Shown in pieces: positions 5,013 through 33,135 of a stretch of 33,342 nt of DNA (position 1 is its first letter; each line of letters begins with the position of its first letter). The notes beneath the pieces are model-generated. The model saw only the letters and a program-made list of their open reading frames with translations, was not told where the DNA came from and made no database searches. A program made the position numbers and the translations under genes. Origin of the DNA: Candidatus Sumerlaeales bacterium (GTDB lineage Bacteria; Sumerlaeota; Sumerlaeia; Sumerlaeales; Sumerlaeaceae); contig JBBSQY010000037.1 in assembly GCA_038243585.1 (NCBI GenBank), positions 1 to 33,342 of the forward strand, in the 5' to 3' direction.

Positions 5013-6629
5013 TTAAGGCTCTGTCACCTTCACTCCGGAGAACGTAATTCCTCTGCTCCCCTGCCCTGGAGCTGGAGATTCTTTGAAAGCGCCGTTGTAG
5101 AAAACTCCGCAATCGCCGGAGTCATACCCCTTCACGTTTTTTTCCGTATGAAAAGGCTTTCCGTCCAACTCGTAGCTGACTGTTGAGCCGTTGCAGGTGA
5201 TGGCAAACTGGTGCCAGCCGCTTTCTTTTAAACGAAACCGCTTATCTCGGTAATCATCAATACCGCCGTTCAAAATGTTCCCGGCGCGAATGCTTCCATC
5301 GTCCGAGTCGAATGCCATTGCCAGGCTGTACCCTATTTCTACCTCGTCCTTAGTATCCGCAGCATGCTGTCCGTTGTCCCGGGCGAAAAGCCCCACGCGT
5401 TCCCAGCCGTCAGCTTTCTTTCTTTTCCGAAGTTCACACCAGACCCATGCTTCGATTCGATAATCTGTCCAGTCTGGTGATCCCAGCCAGGCGGTATCCG
5501 TCTCCGTGCCAGACGTTAGCAGCCGGAAGACCGGTCCCGCCACTGGAGGCGCAGTGGTAAAGTCGTCGGCAACCTCAACCTTGCCATACCGGGCTTCCCA
5601 CGGCAACGTTGGCTGTCCCGCCTCCGGGCTGGCGATCAGGGGAAGCTTCTGCTCAGGACGGTCTTTCGGCAGCACAATCATTCGCACGCCCATATTCCGG
5701 TGACCGGGACCCGCTAGCCAGTGGGTACCGAACCAGTTGCCGTCTCCGTCCACCAGGTTGTAGTACTCGAGCACGGTGGTGGTCTTGGAAACATCAGGCG
5801 CCTTTACGCGGAAAGTCACCACGCGCGTTGTTTCAGGGGCCAACGCCGACAACGAGTCCGTCACCCGGTCCGGCCCAAGCCATCCCTCGGCCATTATGCT
5901 CTCCAGGGCACGGGTCGGAGAACTATCCGGATCTACGGGCGACAAGAAAAGTTTTTCCGGCCATGCCTGCCGGCCATTGTTTACCAGCGTAAACGAAACT
6001 TCAGCGTCTTCACCCGAAGTCAGTTGCAGGTTGATCGTCTGCTCCAGTGGAAACCCGTCCGGGCCAATGGCAACCCCACTTAGAGGCGGCGGCTCTGGAA
6101 AAGGCTCTGGCCGTAAAATGACGCCGCCGCGCCACAGCAGGTCATCCCAGTCCACCACCTTGTGGTCGCCGCCCAGTTTGGGGCTAAAAGATTCTGCAGT
6201 TGGATTGTTTATAATAACCCGACCATCGTCTGTGTATCCGACTGCCAGAACAAAATGCCCGTGACGCCCTTGGTTGACCCCGAGAATCACGGGCCGCCCC
6301 ATGTCGAGCTCGTGCTTAACAGTGTCATGGGTCCAGCCCAGGTTGTGCCAGCTGGGCAGGGCGTAAAGCCCGTATTGCCTGGCTATCTCCGGCGCGTTGA
6401 AGCGGTTGTATTGACAATACTTATGTAGTTCCTGCACGGTTTCTGGAGAGAAATCATCGATGCGCCCCATAAAATCGAGCGCCATCATAAATGAAGTCGG
6501 AAAGCAGGTCTGGTTGTCCGGTTGAGACATATATGCCACCGGCAAATTGATGCCGGCGTTAATATTTCCAGCCAGGGACAACAAACTTGCAGCGGCAGCA
6601 AAGCATAAAAATTTTGACACGGACGGCAT
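5013..6629 (-). CDS. Secreted C39-like (papain-fold) cysteine peptidase with Ig-like and ConA/DUF1080-like beta-sandwich domains
   Basis: Signal peptide; Q-x5-C (SQPDNQTCFPTSFMMAL), GHFVLAVGY and INNP give a Gln/Cys/His/Asn set; FTLVNNGRQAWP...APETTRVVTFRVKAP resembles an NBR1-type Ig-like domain; C-terminal WTDYRIEA...GWHQFAITCNG...ELDG...FSGVKV. SD GAGAGG. Confidence 0.75.
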   Translation of the reverse strand: MPSVSKFLCFAAAASLLSLAGNINAGINLPVAYMSQPDNQTCFPTSFMMALDFMGRIDDFSPETVQELHKYCQYNRFNAPEIARQYGLYALPSWHNLGWTHDTVKHELDMGRPVILGVNQGRHGHFVLAVGYTDDGRVIINNPTAESFSPKLGGDHKVVDWDDLLWRGGVILRPEPFPEPPPLSGVAIGPDGFPLEQTINLQLTSGEDAEVSFTLVNNGRQAWPEKLFLSPVDPDSSPTRALESIMAEGWLGPDRVTDSLSALAPETTRVVTFRVKAPDVSKTTTVLEYYNLVDGDGNWFGTHWLAGPGHRNMGVRMIVLPKDRPEQKLPLIASPEAGQPTLPWEARYGKVEVADDFTTAPPVAGPVFRLLTSGTETDTAWLGSPDWTDYRIEAWVWCELRKRKKADGWERVGLFARDNGQHAADTKDEVEIGYSLAMAFDSDDGSIRAGNILNGGIDDYRDKRFRLKESGWHQFAITCNGSTVSYELDGKPFHTEKNVKGYDSGDCGVFYNGAFKESPAPGQGSRGITFSGVKVTEP

Positions 6630-9646: not shown

Positions 9647-11260
9647 ATGAACTATATGTCAGTCCTGAGGGGCCTCGTTATCGTTACGCTTTTTGCAATC
9701 GCAAAAATTAGCGATGCTCAAGCGACCATAAATTCTTACCTCAACCCCTTGGACGTCTCTGTTGCAGACCCCTTTATTCTAAAAGATGACGGGACCTACT
9801 ACCTCTATGGGACAACCTATGACTCGAATGGGTTTGCCGTTTACACGTCGACGGACCTAGTACACTGGACCCGCCGCGGCCTATGCTGGCAAAAAACAGC
9901 ATTAACCTGGGGACAAGGCGACTTCTGGGCACCGGAAGTAATGAAGGCCGGCAGCACTTACTACTTCTATTACACAGCTTTTAACCCGGCGTCGAATCAG
10001 CGCAACATATGTGTCGCCACTTCAAGCTCGCCCCTGGGGCCTTTTACAGATGTCAGCACCCCCATTCTCCCCACCACAAGCCCTTACATAGATGGTCATC
10101 CCTACCAGGACCCGGCAACCGGAAAACGGTATCTTTACGCGACACGCGACGGCAGTTCCCCTTCAGCCATTGTTGTAACTGAACTTGCCAACCCACCGAT
10201 CGCCACAACCGGGCCGTTACGAAATATCATGACCGTAAGCCAGCCTTGGGAAGGAAGCTGGGTTGAGGCGCCCTTTATCATCCGACACAACAACTGGTAT
10301 TACATGATGTACTCTGCGCGGTGGTTCTGGGAGAGCGAGTATTCCATAGGCTATGCCACCTCAACCAGCCCGCTGGGGCCGTGGACAAAATCATCTATCA
10401 ACCCCATAATAGCGAAGACGTCAACAGCATCGGGGCCCGGTCATAACAGCGCGATATTGTCTCCGGATAACACGGAATTATTTACCGCCTACCATACCCA
10501 CCTGACTTTCGCGGGCGGCGGGGCTCGACAGTTAGCTATTGATCGCCTGGAGTTTACACCACACCCCACGCCGGGTCAGCCCGCCTTCCTCGCGCTGAAA
10601 GCAGGCTCTCCCACGACTAATTTCCAACCGCTACCCTCGGGGGCTCTACCTCGCGCTGCCGGCGTTAGTGACGATTTTCAAGCTGCTGCTCTTGATAGGA
10701 CCCGCTGGAACACCTTCGGTGAAGACGCCGCCCGGTGGAGCCTTCAGTCCGGACAGCTTGCAATAGAGACGCAGAACGGCGATTTGTATAGCGACCGCAC
10801 AGATGCGCATAACTTATTTTTGCAGTACGCGCCCTTAGATGATTTCAGTATGGAAACTCGCCTTAATTTCGCGCCCACTTCTAACTATGAGCAAGCCTTC
10901 CTGATTTTGTGGGAAGATCAGTCAAATTATATTAAACTGGGCAGCCTGTTCGGAGGAGGATCCGTCATTGAAGCCTCCGTAGAAAAAGCAGGCCAATATT
11001 CTGGAGTGACAATTACCAATACGTGGGGAAACAACGTCCGCTTGAAGATTGAACGCCGCGGCAGTAAATGTTACTGCTATGTGGGCAACGTAAGCGATCA
11101 AAACTGGTTGCCAGTCGGCTCACCGATAACTTTTTCAACGTTGCAACCGCAAGCAGGCATTGGAGCCTTTTCTCCAGTGAGCGGCGCAGTAAGAACCGCC
11201 CGCTTTGATTATTTTAACCTCATCTACACTTCCGCTGTAACTGATTGGCAACTCTATTAA
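9647..11260 (+). CDS. Secreted GH43 glycoside hydrolase with C-terminal ConA-like domain and SAVTDWQLY tail
   Basis: Signal peptide; catalytic set ADPF (Asp base), IDG (Asp pKa modulator) and VEAP (Glu acid); FWAPEV, SPLGPF, GPGHNS; DDF...W start of a beta-sandwich domain. Confidence 0.9.
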   Translation: MNYMSVLRGLVIVTLFAIAKISDAQATINSYLNPLDVSVADPFILKDDGTYYLYGTTYDSNGFAVYTSTDLVHWTRRGLCWQKTALTWGQGDFWAPEVMKAGSTYYFYYTAFNPASNQRNICVATSSSPLGPFTDVSTPILPTTSPYIDGHPYQDPATGKRYLYATRDGSSPSAIVVTELANPPIATTGPLRNIMTVSQPWEGSWVEAPFIIRHNNWYYMMYSARWFWESEYSIGYATSTSPLGPWTKSSINPIIAKTSTASGPGHNSAILSPDNTELFTAYHTHLTFAGGGARQLAIDRLEFTPHPTPGQPAFLALKAGSPTTNFQPLPSGALPRAAGVSDDFQAAALDRTRWNTFGEDAARWSLQSGQLAIETQNGDLYSDRTDAHNLFLQYAPLDDFSMETRLNFAPTSNYEQAFLILWEDQSNYIKLGSLFGGGSVIEASVEKAGQYSGVTITNTWGNNVRLKIERRGSKCYCYVGNVSDQNWLPVGSPITFSTLQPQAGIGAFSPVSGAVRTARFDYFNLIYTSAVTDWQLY

Positions 11261-11626: not shown

Positions 11627-13153
11627 TTAATTTTTTTTCTTAAAACCCGGTTTTTCCAAAGCAACCGCGTTGCTTAGCCGCGCATAGGCGCCCATCAGCG
11701 GGTCGTACATCCGTCCGAAATTCTGCACTGCCACGGTATCCAGCGCTGCGCAATGGTCGTCCGACAATTTGAATTGGGTTGGGATGTTGCGAAGCGTATC
11801 CTGCGTTGGCTCATCGTACCCTTCCATACGGACAAACACCACTTCCAACTCTTCCGGATTGTGGTATTCGCCCAATAGGCTGTTATAGTATGCCATCGGC
11901 TTTAAAGTGCCGATATCATACATTCGTGCTATGACCGTCGACGGGCCGAAAATCTTGCCCTCTTTCAGCTTCAGCGTTTCCATCCGTTCACTGCCGTCTA
12001 CGATGATCAGTAGAATTGGCTGATCACGGTCTATCGTCTTTACCAGGCTCAGCAGCGGGTCCACACCCTCGTTTTCATAAAGGCCACCGTCGGCTACATA
12101 TGCGATCCGGCTCTCAAGCAGCTTTCTGTCCACCCGGCCAAGCAGTTCCGGCGGCACCTGGTTTGGATAAACTCGCATCGGAACCGGAGCAAGAACGATG
12201 GGGTAGGCTGCGCTGGCGGCCAGCGCTTTGCTTAGTGGATAGGATCCGATATCACTGCCAAAATCCGCGAAAGTTAGCGGCTGAACGAGGTTACGCAGTA
12301 TCTGCCTGTCAGTTTCAGGCATTGCTACATTTCCCTGCTCGGGGCCCATTAATGAGGGGAATCGCGTGCCTGGTAAATTGGTCATCACAAGCCGCTGACC
12401 GCTGTTATAAACCGTACCGTTAATCAGCAGCGTGGGAGTCGGGTCAACCAAACGCGTTTCCTTCGCCCGCAGGTCGTTGAACGTCAATTTCTGGTCGCCA
12501 ATCAACTTGTCTATTTCATCGGCGAGCAAATCGGTTCGAGTAACCGAGGACGCGAGCAGTTGGAACGCCAAGGGTGGAAACAGCGCCATATGGCCGTAGG
12601 TGCGCCACTGCAGATTGACCGATACCGCCGCTTTCATTTCTTCAAAAAAGCCGGGCTGCTTGCGACGATCAAAGTTGGTCACATACCATGATGACGCAAG
12701 ACCGCCGGCGGATACCGTACTAATGACTTTTACGGTATCAAGCAGGCTGTACATTGGTCTGCCGTCGGAAAGCACCTGGTTCTGCACGCCAGGCATAGGC
12801 ACTTTGGACATCTCTTCCATTACACGGGCCGCATAATAGGCGGATCTGCTCCCGCCGCCGCTAATGGCCATCAGAACAAGGGGCTGGCCAGCCACATATG
12901 GTTGCAACTGGTAATCCCACCGCTGAGTGCCCGGCGATAAAGGATGATTATCCGCATTGGTTCCAAGCGGCAATGGATTATGGCTTGAATTATACTGAGG
13001 CACCGCCTGCGCCACCGGCGGCGGAGAAGAAGCTGGCTGTGCGCCCAAAACTGAAGTAAACAGCGCCAAGGCGCAAGTCGCAGCTGTCCTGTTCAATACA
13101 TTAAATATCCACGAGCGACGGACGGGCGGCGATGACAATTTTCGATTGATCAC
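11627..13153 (-). CDS. Exported patatin-like phospholipase
   Basis: Oxyanion loop AISGGGSRSA, nucleophile elbow STVSAGG, ASAAYP and catalytic DGG (VADGGLYEN). N-terminal signal with RR (VRRSWI); GTG start. Confidence 0.85.
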   Translation of the reverse strand: MINRKLSSPPVRRSWIFNVLNRTAATCALALFTSVLGAQPASSPPPVAQAVPQYNSSHNPLPLGTNADNHPLSPGTQRWDYQLQPYVAGQPLVLMAISGGGSRSAYYAARVMEEMSKVPMPGVQNQVLSDGRPMYSLLDTVKVISTVSAGGLASSWYVTNFDRRKQPGFFEEMKAAVSVNLQWRTYGHMALFPPLAFQLLASSVTRTDLLADEIDKLIGDQKLTFNDLRAKETRLVDPTPTLLINGTVYNSGQRLVMTNLPGTRFPSLMGPEQGNVAMPETDRQILRNLVQPLTFADFGSDIGSYPLSKALAASAAYPIVLAPVPMRVYPNQVPPELLGRVDRKLLESRIAYVADGGLYENEGVDPLLSLVKTIDRDQPILLIIVDGSERMETLKLKEGKIFGPSTVIARMYDIGTLKPMAYYNSLLGEYHNPEELEVVFVRMEGYDEPTQDTLRNIPTQFKLSDDHCAALDTVAVQNFGRMYDPLMGAYARLSNAVALEKPGFKKKN

Positions 13154-17754: not shown

Positions 17755-19683
17755 TTATTTTAGTGAGTCGCCGTCCGCAGAAAGACTGCCGATGGTTTCG
17801 AAGGAGCTATCCACTTGACCCTCAACACCGTCGGGAGCAGGGAGCAGAAGATTATTAGGATAGTAATTCCGAGGGTCCATATCCGCCTCGAAGCGGTGAT
17901 GAGATTCCCGCTGATCCACGGAATCATCAAAGAAGTAATCAGGTAAGTCCCAATGTGCGTCGATGCGGGTATACTTGTAGTTCTCAGCGGGCGTCAGCTG
18001 TGGCGCCTTAATGATGTGAGGAGTTACGAACAACATAAGGTCGTTCTTTTCATGGGTCTTATTGTCATTTTTAAAGAACCATCCGAGCACTGGTGCCTTG
18101 GCAAGCCACGGAAACTCCCGCCTTGAATCCGACGCACTGATCTGCCGCAGGCCGCCGAGGACAACCGTGTCTTCATCTTTAACAATTACGTTTGTCTCGG
18201 CTTTTCTCGTGTCGATGATCGGGATATTTAAAAATGAGCCATTCAAAATTTCCTGCATTGGCTCAAGCTTCATGCGCACATAGCCATTATTTGTAATCAC
18301 AGGCAGAACAGCTAAGCGAACGCTGGATTGCTTGAATTCCACATTCTGAATTGTGCTCCCCTGCGTAGGTCCCTGTCCGGTTTCTACATAAGGATTGTCT
18401 CTGATAATTTCGATGTTGGCTTGCATGTTATTAAGCGTAATAACACGTGGATTCGCAATGGTATTGACAACTTTTCTATTCTCCAGGCCATCCAGCGCAA
18501 GACCAATGTTAAAGTCACTGCCAAGAATTGAAAAAACGCCACCAAAACCGAGACTTGGGTTACCGCTGTTGCCTAGCATGCTCATTAGTCCGTCAACCGG
18601 GTTTATGCCTCCGGCTCCGTCAACCTTCAGTATAGGGCTATTTCCGCTGCTATCTAGCTGAGTAACATTGAGATTTGAACCAAGGTCACGACCAACAGTA
18701 AGGAGCAACTCCACCATGCGGGCCTCAATCATTACCTGTTTTTCGGGCACGTCGAGTTGCGCTACAAGGTCGCGGATAACCGCGATATTTGAAGCTGAAT
18801 CGGAAATGATAAGCGTATTGCTTTCGGGATGAGGGTGAATTTTTCCACCCGTGCCACTGACACTGGAAAGGGCCGTTTGAAGCGTAGCAGCCTCTACCCA
18901 ATTCAGCTTGATATAAACGGTACGGAAATCACCGGTGACCCCCGGCTTGACTTCCTGACGCTTGGCAATACGCATAACGTTTTCGCCCTCACGGACGATC
19001 GCCAGATCCTGAGTAGACAGGAGGCTTTGCAGCGCCACGCCCAGGGGAACATCGCGCAGGTTCAGTGTGATTCTACCAGCGATTACGCCTTCACCATAGA
19101 CGAAGTTTAAATCGGCGCGCTCCGCAAGCAAGCGGATCACCTCTTCCACGTCGGTATCGGCGGGAGTGCTGATGTTTACCCGGCGGTTATAAACTTCCTC
19201 GCCGAGAATTCCGATCAACTTGTTATCGGTGCTGGATTGGGCAACATCATTAGTTTCCGTAACAGTAGGCGGTAAAAATGCCCCAAACTCTTGACCACCT
19301 TCTGTGCGGCCGGTTTCGAGGCCAGCGGTATTGGCCCGCAAGTAGGGATTGTTCTGAGCTTCCTGCAAGGACGGTAACGCGTCATCGCCCATGGCAGACA
19401 AGGGAAGCAGCGTATCGGCACCAGGTTGCGGTAACGGAGACGGGACCGCACTGTCGAGATCGGCTGGAATGCCGGCTTCTCCCAGCGGGGCGCCTAGTTC
19501 CTGTGTTCCCGTTGTCGTGGTCGTTGTAGTCGTAACTGCTTCCATGGAGGAGATTGAAGCCTCATCAATGGGTGTTGCCGGCGACAAACTGCTCTGCGCA
19601 AGCGCGACATGCGCATTCAACGCGATCAGGAACGGAGCGGCTACGGCCGCGGCAACGGGGACACTTAACCAATTTTTGCGCAT
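17755..19683 (-). CDS. pilQ: Outer-membrane secretin, PilQ-like
   Basis: ATG 19683 with SD AAAGGAAG; signal peptide; N0 (RITLNLRDVPLGVAL), N3 (ESNTLIISD...LDVPEKQVMIEARMVE), secretin core (NPRVITLNN, DTVVLGGL, PWLAKAPVLGWFFK, LMLFVTPHII). Last gene of the pilMNO operon. Confidence 0.85.
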   Translation of the reverse strand: MRKNWLSVPVAAAVAAPFLIALNAHVALAQSSLSPATPIDEASISSMEAVTTTTTTTTGTQELGAPLGEAGIPADLDSAVPSPLPQPGADTLLPLSAMGDDALPSLQEAQNNPYLRANTAGLETGRTEGGQEFGAFLPPTVTETNDVAQSSTDNKLIGILGEEVYNRRVNISTPADTDVEEVIRLLAERADLNFVYGEGVIAGRITLNLRDVPLGVALQSLLSTQDLAIVREGENVMRIAKRQEVKPGVTGDFRTVYIKLNWVEAATLQTALSSVSGTGGKIHPHPESNTLIISDSASNIAVIRDLVAQLDVPEKQVMIEARMVELLLTVGRDLGSNLNVTQLDSSGNSPILKVDGAGGINPVDGLMSMLGNSGNPSLGFGGVFSILGSDFNIGLALDGLENRKVVNTIANPRVITLNNMQANIEIIRDNPYVETGQGPTQGSTIQNVEFKQSSVRLAVLPVITNNGYVRMKLEPMQEILNGSFLNIPIIDTRKAETNVIVKDEDTVVLGGLRQISASDSRREFPWLAKAPVLGWFFKNDNKTHEKNDLMLFVTPHIIKAPQLTPAENYKYTRIDAHWDLPDYFFDDSVDQRESHHRFEADMDPRNYYPNNLLLPAPDGVEGQVDSSFETIGSLSADGDSLK

Positions 19684-19699
19684 TGGTCTGCTTCCTTTC

Positions 19700-20761
19700 T
19701 TAATTGTTTGCCCCAGAGGGGCGAACGGGTAGATCAAATATTTTTGTTAATCCAGACTGCACTACTTCAATTTGCACTACACTATCAGAGATGCTGATCA
19801 CTCGGTGACCTGCTTCGCTCCGAATTTCTTCTCCCACACGATAGGCTTTTCCGCCTATCATTGCACGGTTTCCCGATGCGTTCGCAGGATCAACAATGAC
19901 GGTACCCACATTAATATTAGGGCTTAACTCGACAGTTACAGTTGTTGCTTCCACCGGGGCGGCAATTACAGGCGCGGGCGCCTTGTTTATGTCATCAAGC
20001 TTGGCCAATATTGCCTTCGCCTGAAGTGCATGGTCACTATCGGGGAAATCCATAATAATGCCCAACATTTCCTGGCGTCCTTCGTCCACCTTGTTCTCGC
20101 CCAGCAAGCTTACTGCTTTGTCGAAGCGTTCCTGAAGGAGTTTGGCCTGGCGAATCCATGGCACGATCATAGGGTCAGGCATAGGGGTGTCATCTACTAT
20201 AACCCGATAGACTACGGTCGGTTCTTCACCTTTTAGTCGCTTAACGGCTTCGACGTCGAACAAGGTGTTAGAGGTATTTTCGTCCAACTCGAGTCCGCCG
20301 GCAACAGCAGTTTTGCTCTCCCTTTGCAGACCCAGCATTCGAAGAAGTTCAACCCCGCTCTTTACAGCCACAGTTTCGGTTGTCTCGCCTTCTTGTAGAA
20401 CCGCCTGATCCTGGTCAATCTTGACCGAAGGTTCAGTTGCCACGGCCTGTTCGGTCTGTAGAGTGCTGTCTTCGGTACTCTTCATTGAGGTTCCGGGGGC
20501 CGGCACTATTCTACGGGCGGCGTCGTCTGCGGATTTGTCCTGTTTTAGACCTGTGGAGCCGGTCTCACCTTCTCCTGATCCAGTTTCTATAGGAGCGGTA
20601 GTCGCCTGAACGCTGGTTTGCGTAGGCGTTGTCAGTACGTCTATTTCAATTTGAGCGACAACGCTTTGCGTATGACAAAAACTCGATATTACCAGCCCGA
20701 AAGCAAGGGCGGAAAATCCTCGCCATGTTTTGGAAGGAGTAGAATGAATTATGTATGACAT
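19700..20761 (-). CDS. Periplasmic PilP/GspC-like protein with TPR-like insert (pilP position)
   Basis: Lies between pilO and the secretin; signal-like N-terminus; PDPM (RDPF-like); helical pair FDKAVSLL...IIMDFPDSDHALQA; C-terminal RAMIGGKAYRVGEEI...RVISISDSVVQIE beta-domain. Start ATG 20761 or TTG 20773. Confidence 0.55.
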   Translation of the reverse strand: MSYIIHSTPSKTWRGFSALAFGLVISSFCHTQSVVAQIEIDVLTTPTQTSVQATTAPIETGSGEGETGSTGLKQDKSADDAARRIVPAPGTSMKSTEDSTLQTEQAVATEPSVKIDQDQAVLQEGETTETVAVKSGVELLRMLGLQRESKTAVAGGLELDENTSNTLFDVEAVKRLKGEEPTVVYRVIVDDTPMPDPMIVPWIRQAKLLQERFDKAVSLLGENKVDEGRQEMLGIIMDFPDSDHALQAKAILAKLDDINKAPAPVIAAPVEATTVTVELSPNINVGTVIVDPANASGNRAMIGGKAYRVGEEIRSEAGHRVISISDSVVQIEVVQSGLTKIFDLPVRPSGANN

Positions 20762-20769
20762 ATGCTCAA

Positions 20770-21336
20770 TCAACCCTTCGTATTAAATTTAAAAGTAGCC
20801 AGCTGCACCTTGACGGGGTGTACACTGGGTCGGGCGTCATCGTTTTCTATAACAAAGGTTTTGACGCGCATAAGACGATTAGGATTTTCCTCAACCAGAT
20901 TAAGGAACTGACCAAAGTCGTGGTATCTGCCGCTGCCAACTATTTGGTAAGGAATTTCCGTGTAAATGGCTCGTTCAAGCAGCGGAAGCTGTGATAGTTC
21001 AGTATAACTCATGCGGGTAATCTTAAGAATTTCTTCTAATGCGCGGTAGAATTCCTGCGGGGCCACAGTGGATGGTAGTTTTGCAGCGACTTCCGCGAGA
21101 AGGCGCTGTTTTTCTTTTAGCTTTTCAACATTTGCTGCAGCTTCATCCATTTCGGTGACCTGGCGATTCAGATCGCCGATCTCCTTGTCAATCGTGGCTA
21201 GAGTTGTTTCGGCGGCTGCAATCTCTGGTTTCGTAAACTTCCACCAGTAGGTCGCAATTCCGCCTAGCAGCACAAACGCGAGGATAAACCCTGCTTTAAT
21301 GGCGTCTTTTTGCTGAGCTGTAAGTTTATCCCACAT
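20770..21336 (-). CDS. pilO: Type IV pilus alignment protein PilO
   Basis: Single N-terminal TM, coiled coil, KLP, YTEIPYQIVGSGRYHDFGQFL, RLMRV; operon position. Confidence 0.88.
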   Translation of the reverse strand: MWDKLTAQQKDAIKAGFILAFVLLGGIATYWWKFTKPEIAAAETTLATIDKEIGDLNRQVTEMDEAAANVEKLKEKQRLLAEVAAKLPSTVAPQEFYRALEEILKITRMSYTELSQLPLLERAIYTEIPYQIVGSGRYHDFGQFLNLVEENPNRLMRVKTFVIENDDARPSVHPVKVQLATFKFNTKG

Positions 21337-22205
21337 TATTTCAGCACCTCCGCTTCCTCATTGCGCTTGGCCTTAATGCTGACGCCGTCCTCGCCACCGT
21401 CTTCAGCCTTAACGACATCAGAGTCGTCCAAATCGGCCGAGGTGCGATCTAGCTGAGGGTCCGCTTTGATCCGGAAGCCAAATCGAATAACGTCCACTCC
21501 GGCCACACGGTCCACTTTCTGTGGGAGCTGTTCAAATTCTGACGCCATTCGGTCGAGAAACTTCGCCTGCGCTCCCGTTTCTCGTTTCCACTGAACAGCG
21601 TTTAAGTTTTCATAGAACGAACGAATCTGGGCTAAACGCTGAGAACTGTCATTGCCATACGCAATCGCGCTTATTACCAGGGTTTGATTAATGATCGGCT
21701 GCTTTACTGGCGAAGGCTCAGGGGTGGCCAGTTTTGCGTCTTTCGCCTTTGCGGCGGCCCACGCTTCGCGGCGCGCAACGCTTTCCGGTGTCTCTCGTTC
21801 GTCGATCTGTTCCTCAAGCTCGAGTTTCGTGACATACACCGCCAGATTCAAGCGAGCCATGGCGATCATGTTGATCTTTTCGCTCCAGAAAATTCGGTTC
21901 TGGGGGCCCAGGGTTTCGACAACTGCGTATTTTTCTTCAATTTCCTGGCTGCGGAGATTGTTTGCTTCGAATTCGGCCTGCCGCTTTTGCACGTCAGCCT
22001 TGAGGGCGTCGCGCTTGGACGTTCTAGCGGCAACTTCAGCTGCCGCAGCGACACTCTCCATATAGACGAAATACCCCCCTGCGGCGGCGGCCATATAAAG
22101 CAGCATTAGCAGAAGATAAAACGGCACAGCGCTTGGACTGGACTGCTTTTTCGCGGCGCTTTGACGTTTTCCGGATTCGGCGGGAAGGAGGTTAACTTTA
22201 ATCAT
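21336..22205 (-). CDS. pilN: PilN-like alignment protein
   Basis: N-terminal MIKVNLLP (PilM-binding INLLP motif), TM, coiled coil, RIFWSEKI; stop/start overlaps with pilM and pilO. Confidence 0.8.
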   Translation of the reverse strand: MIKVNLLPAESGKRQSAAKKQSSPSAVPFYLLLMLLYMAAAAGGYFVYMESVAAAAEVAARTSKRDALKADVQKRQAEFEANNLRSQEIEEKYAVVETLGPQNRIFWSEKINMIAMARLNLAVYVTKLELEEQIDERETPESVARREAWAAAKAKDAKLATPEPSPVKQPIINQTLVISAIAYGNDSSQRLAQIRSFYENLNAVQWKRETGAQAKFLDRMASEFEQLPQKVDRVAGVDVIRFGFRIKADPQLDRTSADLDDSDVVKAEDGGEDGVSIKAKRNEEAEVLK

Positions 22206-23374
22206 CAGTCGAACATCCTAAGGCCGAGACCGACGCTGACGCCCAGCATATGGCGCACACGCTCCAGATTCTTTTTATCGACTGTCGAACCGGCGATGCC
22301 GATGTTACGAAGTGGATCAATGACCTCTACCGGCAGATTCAACTCCTGGCTAAGAAATTTGTCCAGGTTGTTCATAATCGCTGTACCACCGCCGACTGCG
22401 ACACGCTGAACCGGCTTGCCGTTAGGCTGGTTTTCGAAAAACTGTATGCTGCGCTTAACTTCATTTACAATATTGGTCAAAGTAGCGCGAATCACCTGGC
22501 TGGCTACGTACTCGGGAGAGTCTTCAGCGAGATCTTCCCCGGTTATCCGCTCGACGGTTCCACGGATTGTATCGAGCAGTGATGAGCCACCCATTTCTTC
22601 AGATGCAGTTTCTTCTGATGCGGGCGCCGGAGCCCCCTCTTTCAGCTTAAGTTCTTCCGCCCGCTGAACAGAACAGCCGAGTCGCTGCTGAATGCCAGCG
22701 TTAATAGTGTCGCCGGCCACTGTTATATCGCGAGAAAATCTAGAAACGCCGCCCAGGTAGATGTTTATATTGGTAAGTTCAGACCCAATATCAAGTAAAG
22801 CAACCACCTCGGAGGCGCTCGGCATATAGTTTGCCTCAAAACTGTTGAGAAATGCAAAGGAATCCACATCGATTATTGCTGGAGTTAAATCGGTGGCTTT
22901 CAAAAGAGATATGTGTTCGGCAACCAGATCTTTTTTAGCCGCAACGAGCAGTACATCAATCTTTGACGCCCCCCCAACATCACTTTTTCCCAGCACCACG
23001 GAGTCCAGATTCACTTCTTCCAGCGGGAACGGGATGTAATCTTCAGCTTCCCAGCGGATAGCGCCTTTAAGTTCATTCTCCGGCATGTCAGGCAGTTGAA
23101 TATAGCGAACGATGATCGATTCTCCGCTGACTGCTGAGACAGAATGCTTCGCGGTTATGCCCGCTTGGCTCATGGCCTGACGAATGGCCTCGATGCGCGC
23201 GGTACGGCGATCCACCCCGGCGGACTTCTTGTCCACCCCTGGGTATATCTCTGCCACGCCAAACCGCTCCAGTTCAAACCCACGCCCTAACTTGCGGATC
23301 TGAACGGCCTTGACGACGCTTGACCCAATATCAAGCGCGACAGTTCTTTTAGGGTTTAAAGCCAAACCCGCCAC
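22205..23374 (-). CDS. pilM: Type IV pilus assembly protein PilM (actin-like)
   Basis: VALDIGSSVVKAV, EAEDYIPFPLEEVNLD, VLLVAAKK, IIDVDSFA, LLDIGSELTNI, EVKRSIQFF, GGG, VSVGLGLR. Confidence 0.95.
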   Translation of the reverse strand: MAGLALNPKRTVALDIGSSVVKAVQIRKLGRGFELERFGVAEIYPGVDKKSAGVDRRTARIEAIRQAMSQAGITAKHSVSAVSGESIIVRYIQLPDMPENELKGAIRWEAEDYIPFPLEEVNLDSVVLGKSDVGGASKIDVLLVAAKKDLVAEHISLLKATDLTPAIIDVDSFAFLNSFEANYMPSASEVVALLDIGSELTNINIYLGGVSRFSRDITVAGDTINAGIQQRLGCSVQRAEELKLKEGAPAPASEETASEEMGGSSLLDTIRGTVERITGEDLAEDSPEYVASQVIRATLTNIVNEVKRSIQFFENQPNGKPVQRVAVGGGTAIMNNLDKFLSQELNLPVEVIDPLRNIGIAGSTVDKKNLERVRHMLGVSVGLGLRMFD

Positions 23375-26977: not shown

Positions 26978-29278
26978 TTACCTTGAAGCATTCACCAGCC
27001 AGATGCTCGTTCCATCCGTTGTTAAAAGTTTATCTTCACTTATGAACGTCGCTGTTGAATCGTTATAAATAGTTGGAATGTACGAGTAGTTGGTTATCAT
27101 GGATTCAGGTTCCAGCTTGCCGCCTTTAAATCTGACAATGGCCACGTACCCATTCTGAACCACCACCAGCTTTGGCGAGTTATCCCAAACAGTGCCAGGC
27201 CAGTCAGACCCATAAAATGACATATGATTCCGCGGAATAGGGCTTTGAAGGCTCATAGTAGCCGCGGCCGGCCATGGCATGGGTATGGGGATATCAGTCT
27301 TCGTGCCGGTCTCGAGATTAAAAACCATCACGCCGGATTCATAAGGAAAATTCTCATGCAGAATTTTCTCGGCGGCTGAAATCGGGCTGAACTTTCGGTA
27401 ACTGAACCAAATATGCGGATCGCCGGACGGAGTGTTAACTGGCACTTCCCAAAGCCAGCCAATAAGTATGACCGTAGTGCCGTCGTCGCTGCGGCTACTG
27501 TTGAGGATCTCCCATTTCTTTAGAAGTTGAGCGCCAGTTGTTTCCGCCGCCTCGGCCCGCGCCCGGCTCTCCAGCTGGCGATACACCCGTGGACTTCCAT
27601 CATCGGATATGGCGGATCGGTATGACATGGCCCATCCATAGTCGGATGATACCTGGTCCACTTCTCCCCTCACCCATCCGGCGGTTATGTAGACTCCATA
27701 ATTATCAGTGGGCTTGAGTATCGCAGTGGAGGTTGCGCCGGAGTCATTTATTAAAGATACAGTAAAGACGTTATCCATACGCTGCGTCCAATTCAATAGG
27801 AGCTTCTTTCGCTCCGCAGGAGCAAGCTCTTTGCCGCCGTCCTTCCAGATGATCCCACGATCTCCAATGGACACCTCGACATCATCTGGCCCAATGAGAT
27901 AGCTACGATTCACCTTGTCGTTTTTTATTATTTCGAGACGTCCATTGCCGGATTTAAGGACCGGTTCCGTTTTTGGGTTTGCCGGAATAGCCTGTCCGGA
28001 CATGACAAACGTGGATTGTGTCGGTTTAACCATAGAAAAGTTGAAGCTGCTTTGCAAGCGGTAGAACCAGGATTCGGGCATAATAGCTGAACTGATTGCG
28101 AGACCAAAAGGGCCGCAGATAATCTTTCGAGAACGGTCGGAATCCAACCCGAGAATCCACCGGCCGTCGGCCGACCAACCCGTCAGCTCAAGATCCGGCG
28201 ACTGGGTAAACTCATGGATTTCACCATTGTAGTTCACAGCAAACAGGTGCCTGGAAGTATCCTCTGCAGAAGACCAGGTTCTCCAGGAAATGCGGGTAGC
28301 CTCGCCGAAAACCAATTGGGAGTCGTACCGTTTTTTATCAGGAAACAACTCCAGACGAGCGGAGAAATCACGATTATGTTCCGATCGAAGGGTTGCCAGT
28401 TGCATCGCTCTGGAAGTGGAGGTTTTTTCTTCGTCCATTTGCCACATCATAGGTCGACTACCATGATTATAAGATACCGCGTGCTGGATAAGCGATCTCT
28501 CTGTCACCACATTCCACAAGGTCAGCCCAAATGTAATGGCGACCAACGCGACGGCGTGAAATAGTAGCTGCCGTCGGCTGGGCTGTTTGCCCTGGACAAG
28601 AAGCCGTGCTCCTAGCCACGCGAACACGCCGGCGATTATCAGCAGACGAAACGCGAGCGCCCAGTCTTTCCAAATCGCCTGCGAGTAGCCGAAAGGCCCA
28701 GGGAAAACGAGGCGGCTTGGGTCAGCCATGTACATGACCAGGATGAGGGCTGTAACTGGTACGGCGCTGATGAGGAGGCCCTGGTAGTCGTCTCGGGCGA
28801 GGGAACCGGAGTAGAACCCGATTGCGCCGCAAAGGAGCGCGGTCCAGCCGGGCCAGGCGTCGCGGAAAATCCAAAAGATTGAATATTCCCTAGCCGGGAT
28901 CGCCAACTGAAGCAGGTAGGGCAGCGTGCCACCAACAACCGCGCAAAGCAGCGCGACGACCGTGAGCTTAGTCCCAAAGATTCGCCTGCCACTAGCCGGA
29001 AGCGCGGCCTGCCAGGCCAACACGCCCATGGCTTTCTCTGCAGCCGCAGCGGTAGATCCTATCATCAGCGGAAGTATGAAAACGAGCATGGGAAGAAGCC
29101 CCGTCGTGAAAAGCGCAGCGCGTAGTTCATCGGTGGAGAAGCCGGCGAAGTCCTGCCGCGTGACGGCAAGCATCAGCAACACGGCAGCTCCAAGAACGAC
29201 CACCGCAAGCGTTAACAGCATGGGGTTGCGCTGCAGGCGCAGTTCCTTCTGGAAAAGTTCCCGAGTCAATCCTATCAT
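26978..29278 (-). CDS. ABC-2 type permease fused to a roughly 500-aa extramembrane domain
   Basis: LFQKELR start, about 6 TM, AAEKAMGVLAWQAALPASGRRIFGTKL (ABC-2 E-x-x-x-G...LP...K motif); hydrophilic C-terminal part with WSADGRWI / ISDDG / RSDDGTTV repeats. ATGA overlap. Confidence 0.75.
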   Translation of the reverse strand: MIGLTRELFQKELRLQRNPMLLTLAVVVLGAAVLLMLAVTRQDFAGFSTDELRAALFTTGLLPMLVFILPLMIGSTAAAAEKAMGVLAWQAALPASGRRIFGTKLTVVALLCAVVGGTLPYLLQLAIPAREYSIFWIFRDAWPGWTALLCGAIGFYSGSLARDDYQGLLISAVPVTALILVMYMADPSRLVFPGPFGYSQAIWKDWALAFRLLIIAGVFAWLGARLLVQGKQPSRRQLLFHAVALVAITFGLTLWNVVTERSLIQHAVSYNHGSRPMMWQMDEEKTSTSRAMQLATLRSEHNRDFSARLELFPDKKRYDSQLVFGEATRISWRTWSSAEDTSRHLFAVNYNGEIHEFTQSPDLELTGWSADGRWILGLDSDRSRKIICGPFGLAISSAIMPESWFYRLQSSFNFSMVKPTQSTFVMSGQAIPANPKTEPVLKSGNGRLEIIKNDKVNRSYLIGPDDVEVSIGDRGIIWKDGGKELAPAERKKLLLNWTQRMDNVFTVSLINDSGATSTAILKPTDNYGVYITAGWVRGEVDQVSSDYGWAMSYRSAISDDGSPRVYRQLESRARAEAAETTGAQLLKKWEILNSSRSDDGTTVILIGWLWEVPVNTPSGDPHIWFSYRKFSPISAAEKILHENFPYESGVMVFNLETGTKTDIPIPMPWPAAATMSLQSPIPRNHMSFYGSDWPGTVWDNSPKLVVVQNGYVAIVRFKGGKLEPESMITNYSYIPTIYNDSTATFISEDKLLTTDGTSIWLVNASR

Positions 29279-29982
29279 GACCGCACCTCCAGACGAAGCC
29301 AGAGCCGCCAGGCGATGATATAAGCGATCGCTCCAAAGACAAGAACGAACCAGAACTCTGCGTTAACTGGAGACTTAAGCTGATCTCCGGGTTTCAATGC
29401 TAAATCTAAACCAATGATTGCATCGACAAGTACGAACAGCAACAAAACGATCAGAGGTGAAATCAATATGGCAGTCCACACGAGCAAGGGGCGTTTTAAG
29501 AGGATTGCCAGCAGGACGCCGACGGTTGCGTAGCACCAGGCCAATGCTGTTAACGTAACAACTGCTGCAGCCATTAAGAACTGATCCGTGTGTGTCCACG
29601 ACGTCCATGGATGAGGCAAGGGGACGGCGCAAAGCAATACCGGAAGGAAGAGCATCAGGGCTAAACTTCCAGTTCGAACAAACCAGACGGAGGAACGACT
29701 GCGTGGCGATGTCAGCAACGTCGCCATCGTGCTGCTGGCGGAATCTGAACAAAAAACCCGCGCCACAATGGCGGGACCTACGAGACCGACTGTCGCCGCA
29801 ATCCACGGCCATGCATCAATATCTAGCGGTGCGCCAAGTGGTCCCAAGGGTAATAGCCAGAGGCTCATTACAGCCGTCATATATACCACCCACGGCCAGA
29901 ATGCATGGCGAAAATCCACCAGCGCCAGTTCCATCCACCATGGGTGCGGCTTGCGATGGGCAATATTTGAGACGGCGCTCAT
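29275..29982 (-). CDS. ABC-2 type permease
   Basis: About 6 TM; TMATLLTSPRSRSSVWFVR motif; 4-nt overlaps with both neighbours. Confidence 0.75.
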   Translation of the reverse strand: MSAVSNIAHRKPHPWWMELALVDFRHAFWPWVVYMTAVMSLWLLPLGPLGAPLDIDAWPWIAATVGLVGPAIVARVFCSDSASSTMATLLTSPRSRSSVWFVRTGSLALMLFLPVLLCAVPLPHPWTSWTHTDQFLMAAAVVTLTALAWCYATVGVLLAILLKRPLLVWTAILISPLIVLLLFVLVDAIIGLDLALKPGDQLKSPVNAEFWFVLVFGAIAYIIAWRLWLRLEVRS

Positions 29983-30950
29983 AACTCGCGCCGCCCTTCC
30001 TGCTCATTTGGCATAGCGCTAGTGGCGACAAAGATTTCTTCGAGGGTGAGGGGTTCGACTTCCACTGTCTCCGCGCCGAGCGCCCGTAAGTTATCTTCCT
30101 GTTCCGGGGTGTATTTGGTAGTCAGCAGCCGCGCCGCGCCTTCGGTTTCGTCGGGTTCTCTATAGCCCAATTCCGCCGGCAGATCCGGCACCGTGCCGGG
30201 CCAGCGGGCGTGGATTCTTCGGCAATGTTCGCGCGCCTTGTCGGTCTGCATGGTAATGCGTGCCCGGCCTTTCTCCACGATGGTAAATTCATCAATCAGG
30301 CCTTCCCATTCGGCGATAAGGTGGGTGCTGACCAGGACGGTTTTTTGTCCGGGGGCAGAGTCCATGTAGGCACCGATAACAGTTTGGAGGAATTCCCGTC
30401 GGATGATTGGGTCGAGGCCGGAGGTTGGTTCGTCCAGGAGGAGAAGGTCGGGCTCGTGGCAGACAGCGCAGATGAGAGCGAGCTGGCTGCGCATCCCTTT
30501 GCTCATGGCGTCGACGCGTTTTTTTGGGTCGAGGTCGAAGCAGGCAGTTAGCTGGCTTTGCAGGTCGTGGTTCCAGTGGAGTCGAAACGCGGAGTGATAG
30601 CGGAGGACGCGAGCGACGGTCATCCACGGATGGAAACTGACATGCTCGGGCACGTAGCCGACGCGGGATTTGACGGCGACATCATCTTTTTGAGGAGACA
30701 AACCGAAAACTTTTATATCGCCGGATTGGGGCCGGAGCAGATTGAGCAGACATTTGATCGTGGTGCTCTTGCCAGCGCCGTTGCGCCCGAACAAGCCGTA
30801 ACACCGTCCGCCGGGAACGCGGAGATTGAGGCCGCGAACGGCCTCGGTTTTCCCGTATGCGCAGTGGAGGTCATGCACCTCAACAGCAAGGGCAGGGACG
30901 TTTTGAATTGCCGAAGTCAAACTGGGATCTGTTTGTTTTGAGTCATTCAT
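29979..30950 (-). CDS. ABC transporter ATP-binding protein (YtrB-like)
   Basis: Walker A GRNGAGKS, signature MSKGM, Walker B LLLLDEPTSGLDP, H-loop STH. SD GGAGG. Confidence 0.95.
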   Translation of the reverse strand: MNDSKQTDPSLTSAIQNVPALAVEVHDLHCAYGKTEAVRGLNLRVPGGRCYGLFGRNGAGKSTTIKCLLNLLRPQSGDIKVFGLSPQKDDVAVKSRVGYVPEHVSFHPWMTVARVLRYHSAFRLHWNHDLQSQLTACFDLDPKKRVDAMSKGMRSQLALICAVCHEPDLLLLDEPTSGLDPIIRREFLQTVIGAYMDSAPGQKTVLVSTHLIAEWEGLIDEFTIVEKGRARITMQTDKAREHCRRIHARWPGTVPDLPAELGYREPDETEGAARLLTTKYTPEQEDNLRALGAETVEVEPLTLEEIFVATSAMPNEQEGRREL

Positions 30951-30977
30951 AGAAATAGCCTCCGGGTAATTGACGCA

Positions 30978-31376
30978 TCATTTGCTCTCCCCTCTTCGTT
31001 TGTTGAAGCTTATCAGGCTGGCTTCGGCTATGCGCATAAATTCTTCGTCGCTGATGTCCAGATGCCGCGCCTGCACGATGGCGGCGTCGATGGCTTCCTG
31101 AGCGAGCTGCTTTCTCGCGGCAGTGGAAAGCTGGTTTGCAAAGTCGGCGATGAAAACGCCGAGGCCGTGGCGGGTGGCGGTCACGCCGAGATGATCCAGT
31201 TCCGTGTAGGCGCGGGCGACGGTGTTGCGGTTGATGCGAAGCTGCTCCGCCAGATCTCGGATGGACGGCAACTGGTCTCCCGACCTCAGCGTGCCCGAGG
31301 CGGCACTGATCTGCACCTGTTCCACAATCTGGAGGTATGCCGGCTTGCCGGATTTATAATTGATCTCGATATGCAT
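30978..31376 (-). CDS. GntR family transcriptional regulator, YtrA subfamily
   Basis: PAYLQIVEQV...LPSIRDLAEQLRINRNTVARAYTEL...GLGVFI wHTH with a short C-terminal helical domain; first gene of an ABC operon. Confidence 0.95.
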   Translation of the reverse strand: MHIEINYKSGKPAYLQIVEQVQISAASGTLRSGDQLPSIRDLAEQLRINRNTVARAYTELDHLGVTATRHGLGVFIADFANQLSTAARKQLAQEAIDAAIVQARHLDISDEEFMRIAEASLISFNKRRGESK

Positions 31377-31553: not shown

Positions 31554-31585
31554 AAAAAAAAACCCCGGCCTATAGGGCCGGGGTT
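31554..31585 (-). terminator. Rho-independent terminator of the beta-helix gene
   Basis: AACCCCGGCC (31561-70) / GGCCGGGGTT (31576-85), 5-nt loop; the A-run 31554-31562 is the minus-strand U-tail. Confidence 0.9.
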
Positions 31586-31611: not shown

Positions 31612-33135
31612 TTAGTAGACGCTCCAGTCACTTACGGCTGACCCTACGACTTTAAAGAAATCCGGTGAGAATGGATCCGTCATGTTTACGTATTCGACGG
31701 CTTGGTTTGTCACGGTAGGGTCCAGGTTAATAACACCCGTACCAACGGTTGGCGGAGTACGCAATGCATTGGCACCAGCCGTTGATAAAATGGTGTTGGA
31801 AACATTAACGGTTCCCGTCCCGTTGTTGACGATGCCGTGTTTATCGTTTCCCGTAAATACGCTGTTGGTGATATTCAAAATACGGTTCGACGCCAGAGCT
31901 AGATAAATTCCGCCCGGCGTTGCGCCGCTTCCAGCATTATGAATAACAAGGTTATCCATGGTGATCGTCCCGGACGCTTCGCCATTTGGGGGTAATGCGC
32001 CGCTTGCAGCCAGGCGTATACCATCGTCAAGGCCATTAGCGATCACGGTATTGGTCACAGAATTTACAAACGCGCGGGCAAGGACTTCTGAAATGGCGTT
32101 GCCGGTAATATTAAAGAACCGCGCATAGTTAACGTTGACTGCAGTTGGCTGCGTTGCGCCAGTGGTATCGGAACCGTTGTAAATGGTTTGCGCTCCCAGG
32201 ATTTCCCGAAAGACGACCGGGTTGCTGGCCGTACCATTCACATTAACAATGCCGCCGTAAGGATTCTGAATGGCGCGTCCATCAATATTGGCAAATACAC
32301 ACCCCTCGTTGATATTAACAGTGCAGTTAATCAGATCTGAGGTCGTGCCGTTCATGTATGCAATAATTCCATCGGCGTTGTGACCGGCCGAAACTGAGGA
32401 AAACGACGCGATGACAGTGTTCTTTAAGTTTAGGGTAAGATCGCCTCTTTCAAATCGGGATAAAGCCCAAATTGCATCACCTTTGTCTCCCAGTGTGACT
32501 ACGCCAGACGCATTCAAATCCGGGGCGGGCTCGCGACCGGTAGTAACTATTGGCAAGTTGCTACCATTGTTGGATGTAAGCACACAATTCTCAAGATTAA
32601 CCGTGAGGTCATCGGAACTGGTAGGTGACTTTATAAGCAACAACCCACGCATCGTAGCATCCGTAGGCACAAATGCGATATTTTTGAGAGTTAACACGCC
32701 AGCCTGACGCCAGGCAAAGGACGGCCTCACAGGAGGACTGTTCACTGAATTGGTCTCACGAAGCACCTGTTCGCCGTTCTGCAGAGGCTGACCCGCTAAT
32801 GTAGCCAGACCACCGGCACCCTGAATCGTCATATCGCCCGCGATAGTCATAGCTGCGGTGGGATGTTCGATATCGGCGTTTACTTTATCAATTACGGGTG
32901 TGCCGGGGGCAATATTAATGACGTTAGCCGCAATATTTCCCGCATTAGATCCCGTTCCGGTGGCAAAGCTGGCAACCGCGTCGTGAAGCGTATTAAAAGT
33001 TGTTGTGCCGTTGGGCGAGGCATTGGCCGCGTCGACTGTAACAGTTTGCCCGGATGAAGCGCCTGCAATACAAACTGCCGCAATAGCCCCACCCCACGTG
33101 AGAGCATTGCTTCTAAAAAAATGTTTTGAGATCAT
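31612..33135 (-). CDS. Secreted right-handed beta-helix (pectin-lyase-like fold) protein with SAVSDWSVY tail
   Basis: ATG 33135 after AAGGGG; signal peptide; TVTVD...FNTLHDAV...VINIAPG start typical of beta-helix proteins; Asn/Gly/Thr-rich repeats (LTLKNIAF, VNLENCVL, LNLKNTVI, ININEGCVF-like, NITNSVFTGN). Confidence 0.75.
   Translation of the reverse strand: MISKHFFRSNALTWGGAIAAVCIAGASSGQTVTVDAANASPNGTTTFNTLHDAVASFATGTGSNAGNIAANVINIAPGTPVIDKVNADIEHPTAAMTIAGDMTIQGAGGLATLAGQPLQNGEQVLRETNSVNSPPVRPSFAWRQAGVLTLKNIAFVPTDATMRGLLLIKSPTSSDDLTVNLENCVLTSNNGSNLPIVTTGREPAPDLNASGVVTLGDKGDAIWALSRFERGDLTLNLKNTVIASFSSVSAGHNADGIIAYMNGTTSDLINCTVNINEGCVFANIDGRAIQNPYGGIVNVNGTASNPVVFREILGAQTIYNGSDTTGATQPTAVNVNYARFFNITGNAISEVLARAFVNSVTNTVIANGLDDGIRLAASGALPPNGEASGTITMDNLVIHNAGSGATPGGIYLALASNRILNITNSVFTGNDKHGIVNNGTGTVNVSNTILSTAGANALRTPPTVGTGVINLDPTVTNQAVEYVNMTDPFSPDFFKVVGSAVSDWSVY

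Follow-up and report, generated by a model that had tools for sequence, protein, structure and literature searches.

The window, by which we mean the whole 33,342-nucleotide stretch of DNA that was analyzed, encodes two proteins that end in copies of the same nine-residue tail, a predicted beta-helix protein and a GH43 protein (Table 1). The first-pass annotation had described the former as an N/G/T-rich protein bearing the second tail copy, and translation bears this out (N 10.7%, G 10.3%, T 10.5%). Its gene starts with the ATG at position 33135, immediately downstream of a purine-rich stretch, and because relatives of the protein align from QTV, after the leader, the mature chain is taken to start at position 33048. 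The gene had also been credited with a terminator of its own. A hairpin of 10 pairs, 8 of them G-C, does follow the stop codon and is succeeded by a T run; the same scan, however, returned 2 terminator-like sites against 2.0 in shuffled sequence, so the hairpin is typical in form but statistically not special. Directly downstream of it, at positions 26978-31376 of the reverse strand, lie genes for a GntR regulator, an ABC ATPase and two permease-like proteins, apparently a separate unit.

Table 1. Positions in the window of the two tail-bearing proteins and their associated features.
Feature	Position	Strand	Basis
C-terminal tag SAVSDWSVY and stop codon (copy 2)	31612..31641	(-)	Translation; profile; unfolded in AF2 model
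507-aa protein, predicted right-handed beta-helix	31612..33135	(-)	ORF, AF2, Foldseek, Atlas
Predicted Sec signal peptide, 29 residues, mature start QTV	33049..33135	(-)	Sequence heuristic without SignalP; relatives aligned from QTV
Intrinsic-terminator-like hairpin, then T run	31561..31585	(-)	27 nt past the stop codon; consensus match only
C-terminal tag SAVTDWQLY and stop codon (copy 1)	11231..11260	(+)	Translation
GH43 with GH43_C2 domain, second cargo of the window	9647..11260	(+)	Pfam PF04616 and PF17851

When the beta-helix protein was compared with the GH43, the tail itself was the best BLASTP segment (E 0.068) and nothing else was found in common, as the annotation had held. An AF2 model of the protein, built on a 10-row alignment, is all-beta with a mean pLDDT of 86.6, and the tail (model residues 471-478) is unfolded with a pLDDT under 50, which argues that it is not a strand of the fold. 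Foldseek searches with the model gave weak matches to GH110, dextranase and AlgE4 (E 4e-4 to 9e-4, TM 0.32-0.38), and the neighbours of the protein in the Atlas bear PF13229; since the former are beta-helix enzymes, both results point to a right-handed beta-helix as the predicted fold. Searches of Pfam and NCBIfam returned no match at E 0.1. The leader and the predicted fold thus agree with the earlier picture of a secreted beta-helix protein, whereas the extracellular location and the adhesin or polysaccharide-active role that had been added to it remain putative.

Three paralogues in the genome are likewise tagged, and all 7 of its 7 database relatives end in the tail or a near variant. Among 11 relatives in other genomes, 10 carry the tail with its tryptophan (hereafter the W tail) and one ends in PVELSVFTAH. 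Two other proteins of the window are without the tail: an exported C39-like peptidase with lectin-like domains (5013-6629, reverse strand) and a patatin-like protein (11627-13153, reverse strand).

The tail in the source genome

A profile of the tail, applied with a minimum score of 12 and a minimum length of 200 aa, was searched against 5867 ORFs of at least 100 aa from the source genome (G000). Seventy-six ORFs, belonging to 42 BLAST clusters, end in the tail, about 3% of the ~2770 gene-like ORFs. Their consensus is [STA]-small-[VAI]-x-D-W-x-[LIV]-[YF], and the chain stops at the Y/F in 47 of them, one residue further in 27 and four or six residues further in the other 2. Because the profile was trained on its own members, the test rests not on the scores but on the gap that separates the tail ORFs from the rest (16.7 down to 10.6) and on an internal control, in which 3 of 1,404,382 internal positions scored at least 12 and 0.09 terminal matches were expected by chance.

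The tagged proteins, or cargo, were scanned for known families with Pfam (69 of 76) and NCBIfam (44 of 76). They include GH43, GH18, GHL10, S8, M12, M23, trypsin, sulfatase, phosphodiesterase, LTD, BNR, kelch and ice-binding proteins, and in those scans no sorting model appeared among the matches. Two crude leader tests were passed by 67/72 and 60/72 of the complete tail members; as they were also passed by 785/1491 (53%) and 798/1952 (41%) of other ORFs, the enrichment of the tail set for export is suggestive only. A membrane segment after residue 70 occurs in a single tail ORF, and one cargo, a DUF1501 protein, has a twin-arginine leader. At the lower extreme of size, a 95-aa exported protein (C46:6969-7256) is hardly more than the tail joined to a leader by a short Gly-rich segment. 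The evidence as a whole gives good support to the view that exported proteins carry the tail as a sorting or docking tag, and we consider it very probably correct.

Spread and portability of the tail

A clear tail signal was present in 66 of 75 Sumerlaeota genomes, a genome being scored as positive if it had at least 2 strict matches or if its loose matches exceeded the control by at least 5. Across the 75 genomes, two strict DNA patterns gave 341 and 213 matches (554 together) and their reversed controls 11 and 3 (14 together), while a loose pattern gave 702 against 201 for its reversed control. The first two DNA patterns gave zero in 13 genomes; a looser one exposed divergent tails in G018, G019, G023, G024, G025, G043 and G047, so that a zero obtained with a single pattern is not to be taken as absence. 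Families f7 and f8 have R, N or H where the consensus has Asp. In the closed genome G021, no tail rose above background with four patterns and 237 sampled ORFs.

The tail had been suspected of being a portable module, and the relatives of the GH43 confirm it, since they come both with and without it: in 16 of 120 the tail is appended behind the last conserved segment, and the others end without it. Named relatives from Planctomycetota, Lentisphaerae, Armatimonadetes, Dictyoglomaceae and Niastella were without it. It had been further suggested that homologues might carry a known sorting domain in its place, and no such exchange was seen in the Pfam assignments of the 120 relatives. One of these, P0108, ends by eye in a dockerin-like repeat. 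Another, P0040, ends in S-R-V-D-E-W followed by ~25 residues, a possible link to a longer signal.

No description of the tail was found in the literature, in a search confined largely to the main texts of freely accessible journals, nor were papers found that pair Sumerlaeota with type II secretion or with sortase; the terms 'C-terminal', 'pilin' and 'extracellular' are not used in the available part of PMC8092238. The tag is likely uncatalogued.

Possible readers of the tail

We weighed four readers for the tail and rank them, in falling order of confidence, as a C25 protease that cuts and anchors, a pilin that docks, an acceptor domain that takes up the tail as a strand, and some other envelope partner. 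Our leading proposal, which we hold tentatively, is that the nine-residue tag is read by a PorU-like C25 cysteine protease, which would remove it and attach the protein to an anchor in the envelope. Such a pathway could proceed in three steps. First, Sec or Tat would take the cargo across the inner membrane. Second, the folded cargo would pass the outer membrane through a secretin system or be kept in the periplasm, and the tag itself would not serve as the export signal. Finally, the C25 protease would bind the W-x-(L/I/V)-Y end, cut between S/T/A and the next small residue, and resolve the acyl-enzyme on an amine carried by an envelope polymer, a glycolipid for example, much as PorU does with A-LPS.

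C25 proteases (PF01364) are encoded in 73 of the 75 genomes, with three copies in G000, on contigs C8, C5 and C49. For all three, the PorU model is the best or second-best match, over 550-730 residues, with scores of 160-185 bits (up to 282 in a relative) against the NF033707 PorU cut-off of 420. In an alignment of 28 relatives of the C8 copy, the catalytic His and Cys never vary, and they align with those of gingipain R. Used as a query at 1e-25, this copy matches 69 of the 75 genomes and spans classes of 1500 and 1800 residues. Of the 66 tail-positive genomes, 65 have a large C25, the sole miss being 71% complete; of the 9 genomes without a clear tail signal, 4 have one. The five genomes that have neither the large C25 nor the tail are G021 and G035, which belong to one genus, and three that are 58-72% complete. 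G021 keeps one weak PF01364 match. It also has 27 matches to the pilin family and a giant secretin, and its GspD and GspK score above cut-off. The first-pass annotation had suggested that the tail might set the route across the outer membrane; this is a conjecture, and G021, which retains GspD and GspK yet has no tail, is easier to square with a tag for attachment than with a signal that export would require.

The start of the tail also resembles a PorU site. Published PorU cuts follow X/(GSA)(VLI) (PMC4560394; PMC11969387), and by our hand count of the 17 sites in one table (PMC4560394, Table 2), the first place is G/S/A in 16, the second V/L/I in 14 and the fourth D/E in 7. With the tail placed in the PorU-matching register, which was of our own choosing, 52, 58 and 54 of the 76 tails agree at the first, second and fourth place, and all three agree in 24/76, compared with 0.48% in cargo bodies. 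Both residues of X/(GSA)(VLI) are found in 36/76 tails against a background of 5%, for what is a low-information motif in a chosen register. LpxC, an LpxA-like gene and BamA are encoded in G000. There are two BamA genes (C2:113547 and C95:389) with the same type of upstream neighbour, which reflects either duplication or contamination (3.6%).

Several observations speak against a C25 reader. The invariant W and Y of the tail have no counterpart in PorU sites, in which V/I occupies the W position, and the Asp is lost in f7 and f8. The joint loss of C25 and tail rests on the single genus of G021 and G035, the 1500-residue class, taken by itself, was not found in G002, G053 and G054, all of which are tailed, and no C25 gene lies near any tail gene in G000, though pilin genes often do. 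The C25 proteins could instead serve a second tail (PVxLSxF), or could be ordinary proteases.

The gene neighbourhood of the pilins is one of the points that favour a different reading, which we consider rather unlikely: that a type IV filament machine takes up the tail as a docking strand and so selects folded cargo for export or display. By analogy with the last ~10 residues of PilC/PilY1, it might be added as a beta-strand to a minor pilin or might bind the head of a pseudopilin, and the terminal strand of PilC/PilY1 offers a precedent (PMC13533445). In G000, 10 of the 28 GspG-like paralogues have a tail gene within 500 nt, compared with 146/2694 other genes (p about 1e-6), one cargo (C47:7635) combines a pilin-like head, a cleavable leader and the tail, and both Sec and Tat cargo bear the tail. 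The machinery is present as well: besides a full E/F/H/I/J/K/L/M/C/D-like cluster on C45 of type II secretion-like character, G000 has three secretins, namely a PilQ-like one in the window, a GspD-like one in the C45 cluster and a 1692-aa TPR-bearing one on C32. Against this, 8 of 129 pilins in six other genomes had a pattern-matched tail within 4 kb where 4.3 were expected (p 0.07), and the number of pilins tracks the number of strict tails weakly (rho 0.24), for which reason pilin count was dropped as a predictor of tail count. Pilins, GspD and GspK persist in G021 where the tail is absent, GspK of G000 seemingly ends, by eye, in a strand of its own, and a site at the filament tip would admit one cargo per filament, whereas there are 76 types of cargo.

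With regard to the filament genes themselves, the GspG-like pilin family was matched in 75/75 genomes, with 1 to 124 matches per genome and 28 genes in G000; the first 30 residues are nearly invariant and the heads variable. The window contains a pilM-N-O-P-Q-like cluster (17755-23374, reverse strand) in which PilM scores above cut-off and the secretin is nearest PilQ. The protein at C47:7635-8516 has a pseudopilin-like head, a TIG domain and the tail; where the pilin helix would be, it has a cleavable-looking leader. By eye it resembles the pilins at C40:29822-31532 and C76:7053-9396.

A third and more doubtful reading has the tail act as the donor strand that completes a small exported FnIII-like protein devoid of strand 1 (G000 C43:928-1464); the resulting anchor would be non-covalent and would serve the PVxLSxFxLE tail as well. 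This second tail ends 4 ORFs of G000, and its motif is one that opens FnIII-like domains outside the phylum; C43:928-1464 was picked out by a motif scan as one small exported protein with the rest of such a domain. The two tails share phylum, position and an aliphatic(-7), aromatic(-4), aliphatic(-2) register, hybrids of them occur, and one swap between relatives is known, in that the exception among the 11 beta-helix relatives carries the second tail at the same place as the W tail of the other 10. The acceptor protein is conserved as a standalone protein, often with a lipobox and sometimes beside C25 genes. In the model of a natural protein that has the domain entire, the PVEL-like stretch forms strand 1, at a pLDDT near 92. 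Foldseek searches with the FnIII-like domain model gave weak Ig/Fn3 matches only. The tails differ, however, in that PVxLSxFxLE matches strand 1 of the domain, whereas in some proteins the W tail follows a complete FnIII-like domain and is unfolded in the model (pLDDT 46). The acceptor alignment matches 62/75 genomes when internal domains are counted, yet the W tail is common where no acceptor was found: G018 and G024, with 32 and 18 tails at 95% and 94% completeness, gave no match to the alignment, and neither did G041, G068, G029 and G025. We accordingly downgraded the standalone FnIII-like protein as a universal reader, and the acceptor strand suits the second tail better than it does the W tail.

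Two arrangements of acceptor-type genes may be recorded here. A C25 protease frame on C33 of G019 also contains an acceptor-like FnIII domain, a possible fusion of both parts, and in families f9 and f14 a divergent small acceptor-type lipoprotein is encoded between a GspE-N-like gene and a gene for a 500-aa exported protein.

Somewhat less probable still is binding of the tail to some other component of the envelope, for instance the TPR part of the giant secretin, a periplasmic or surface protein, or, by way of its W and Y, a membrane interface. TPR domains bind C-terminal peptides, and the 1692-aa secretin of G000 has TPR, STN and Secretin_N parts, with secretin frames of 1300-1700 aa found in 5 of 5 genomes searched; but the giant secretin is kept in the tail-less G021, and the chain ends in a fixed V-x-x-W-x-L-Y register, which points more readily to a pocket on a protein than to lipid. 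In that secretin (C32:28553-33631), TPR repeats and a long charged stretch precede the STN domain. Lastly, we find it scarcely credible that the tail has no function and is a leftover that gene duplication or recombination has spread: 34 of the 76 cargo do fold into larger clusters of relatives, but the tail spans 42 clusters, varied codons, genomes of very different base composition and 66/75 genomes, and its conservation at the protein level largely excludes such an origin.

Implications

The shared signal on ~3% of the proteome singles out the enzymes exported by a phylum that is widespread and uncultured, and annotation can use it now. If the tail is indeed read by a C25 protease, sortase anchoring would be separable from the type IX translocon. 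A fuller scheme, which we regard as less certain than the C25 reader itself and on the whole doubtful, is a sortase route without type IX secretion: the nine residues would be the whole signal, a PorU-like protease would exchange it for an envelope anchor, a secretin would carry the protein to the surface, and the second tail of the same register would act through a split fibronectin-like domain, giving two minimal peptide tags for an enzyme coat. Were this so, the attachment step of type IX secretion could stand alone, and the tag would be a very short one for ligation. To our knowledge, no linear cargo signal is known for type II secretion-like machines, and a pilin reader would provide one.

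Comparison with known sorting systems

The tag fails the defining tests for type IX CTDs, tripartite CTERM signals and barrel signals. LPXTG/sortase, PEP-CTERM/exosortase and GlyGly-CTERM/rhombosortase use a tripartite signal made up of a motif, a membrane helix and basic residues. Like these, the tag is a portable C-terminal element on many unrelated exported proteins and is presumably processed by a dedicated enzyme; unlike them, it has no membrane helix or basic cluster, and its motif is the very end of the chain. The test for tripartite signals thus failed, with one membrane segment after residue 70 among the 76 cargo and chains that end at most 6 residues past the Y. The test for an autotransporter or BAM beta-signal failed likewise: in agreement with the earlier statement that no autotransporter barrel is present, the model of the beta-helix protein has no barrel, its tail is unfolded, and no barrel family occurs among the scanned cargo.

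The system is also not type IX secretion, given that PorV (NF033709) was found in 0/75 genomes with a positive Bacteroides control; PF19572 gave 0/5. SprA/Sov (PF14349) was found in 0/5 genomes and in no control, and the CTD model TIGR04183 exceeded its cut-off in 0/5 genomes and in 0/14 controls, which makes this a weak search. Among the cargo matches (Pfam 69/76, NCBIfam 44/76), the CTD families TIGR04183 and PF18962 did not appear. A split CTD, with its remainder encoded as a separate gene, was sought by TIGR04183, PF13860 and motif scans and yielded no convincing candidate; the weak matches were Cys-rich or carboxypeptidase-regulatory-like repeats.

Two further systems share features with the tag. 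The strand that PilC/PilY1 places on PilK (PMC13533445) likewise comprises about ten residues at the extreme C-terminus that are unfolded alone, and the present genome is rich in type IV filament genes. It belongs there to one or two dedicated beta-propeller tip adhesins, whereas the tail is borne by 76 proteins in 42 clusters; the PilC/PilY1 family was not among the matches of the 69/76 cargo scanned, and the carrier in the window is a predicted beta-helix. As for PorU and the CTD of Porphyromonas gingivalis (NF033707, TIGR04183), the CTD is a folded domain of 40-82 residues (PMC4560394; PMC11969387), whereas the tag has nine to ten. The C25 proteins here fall below the PorU cut-off, two of them have CARDB domains, and the W-x-L-Y end is absent from PorU sites. 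The two systems are nonetheless alike in placing a C-terminal signal on unrelated Sec cargo and in encoding C25 proteases with the catalytic His and Cys; in the chosen register, the start of the tag may also correspond to X/(GSA)(VLI).
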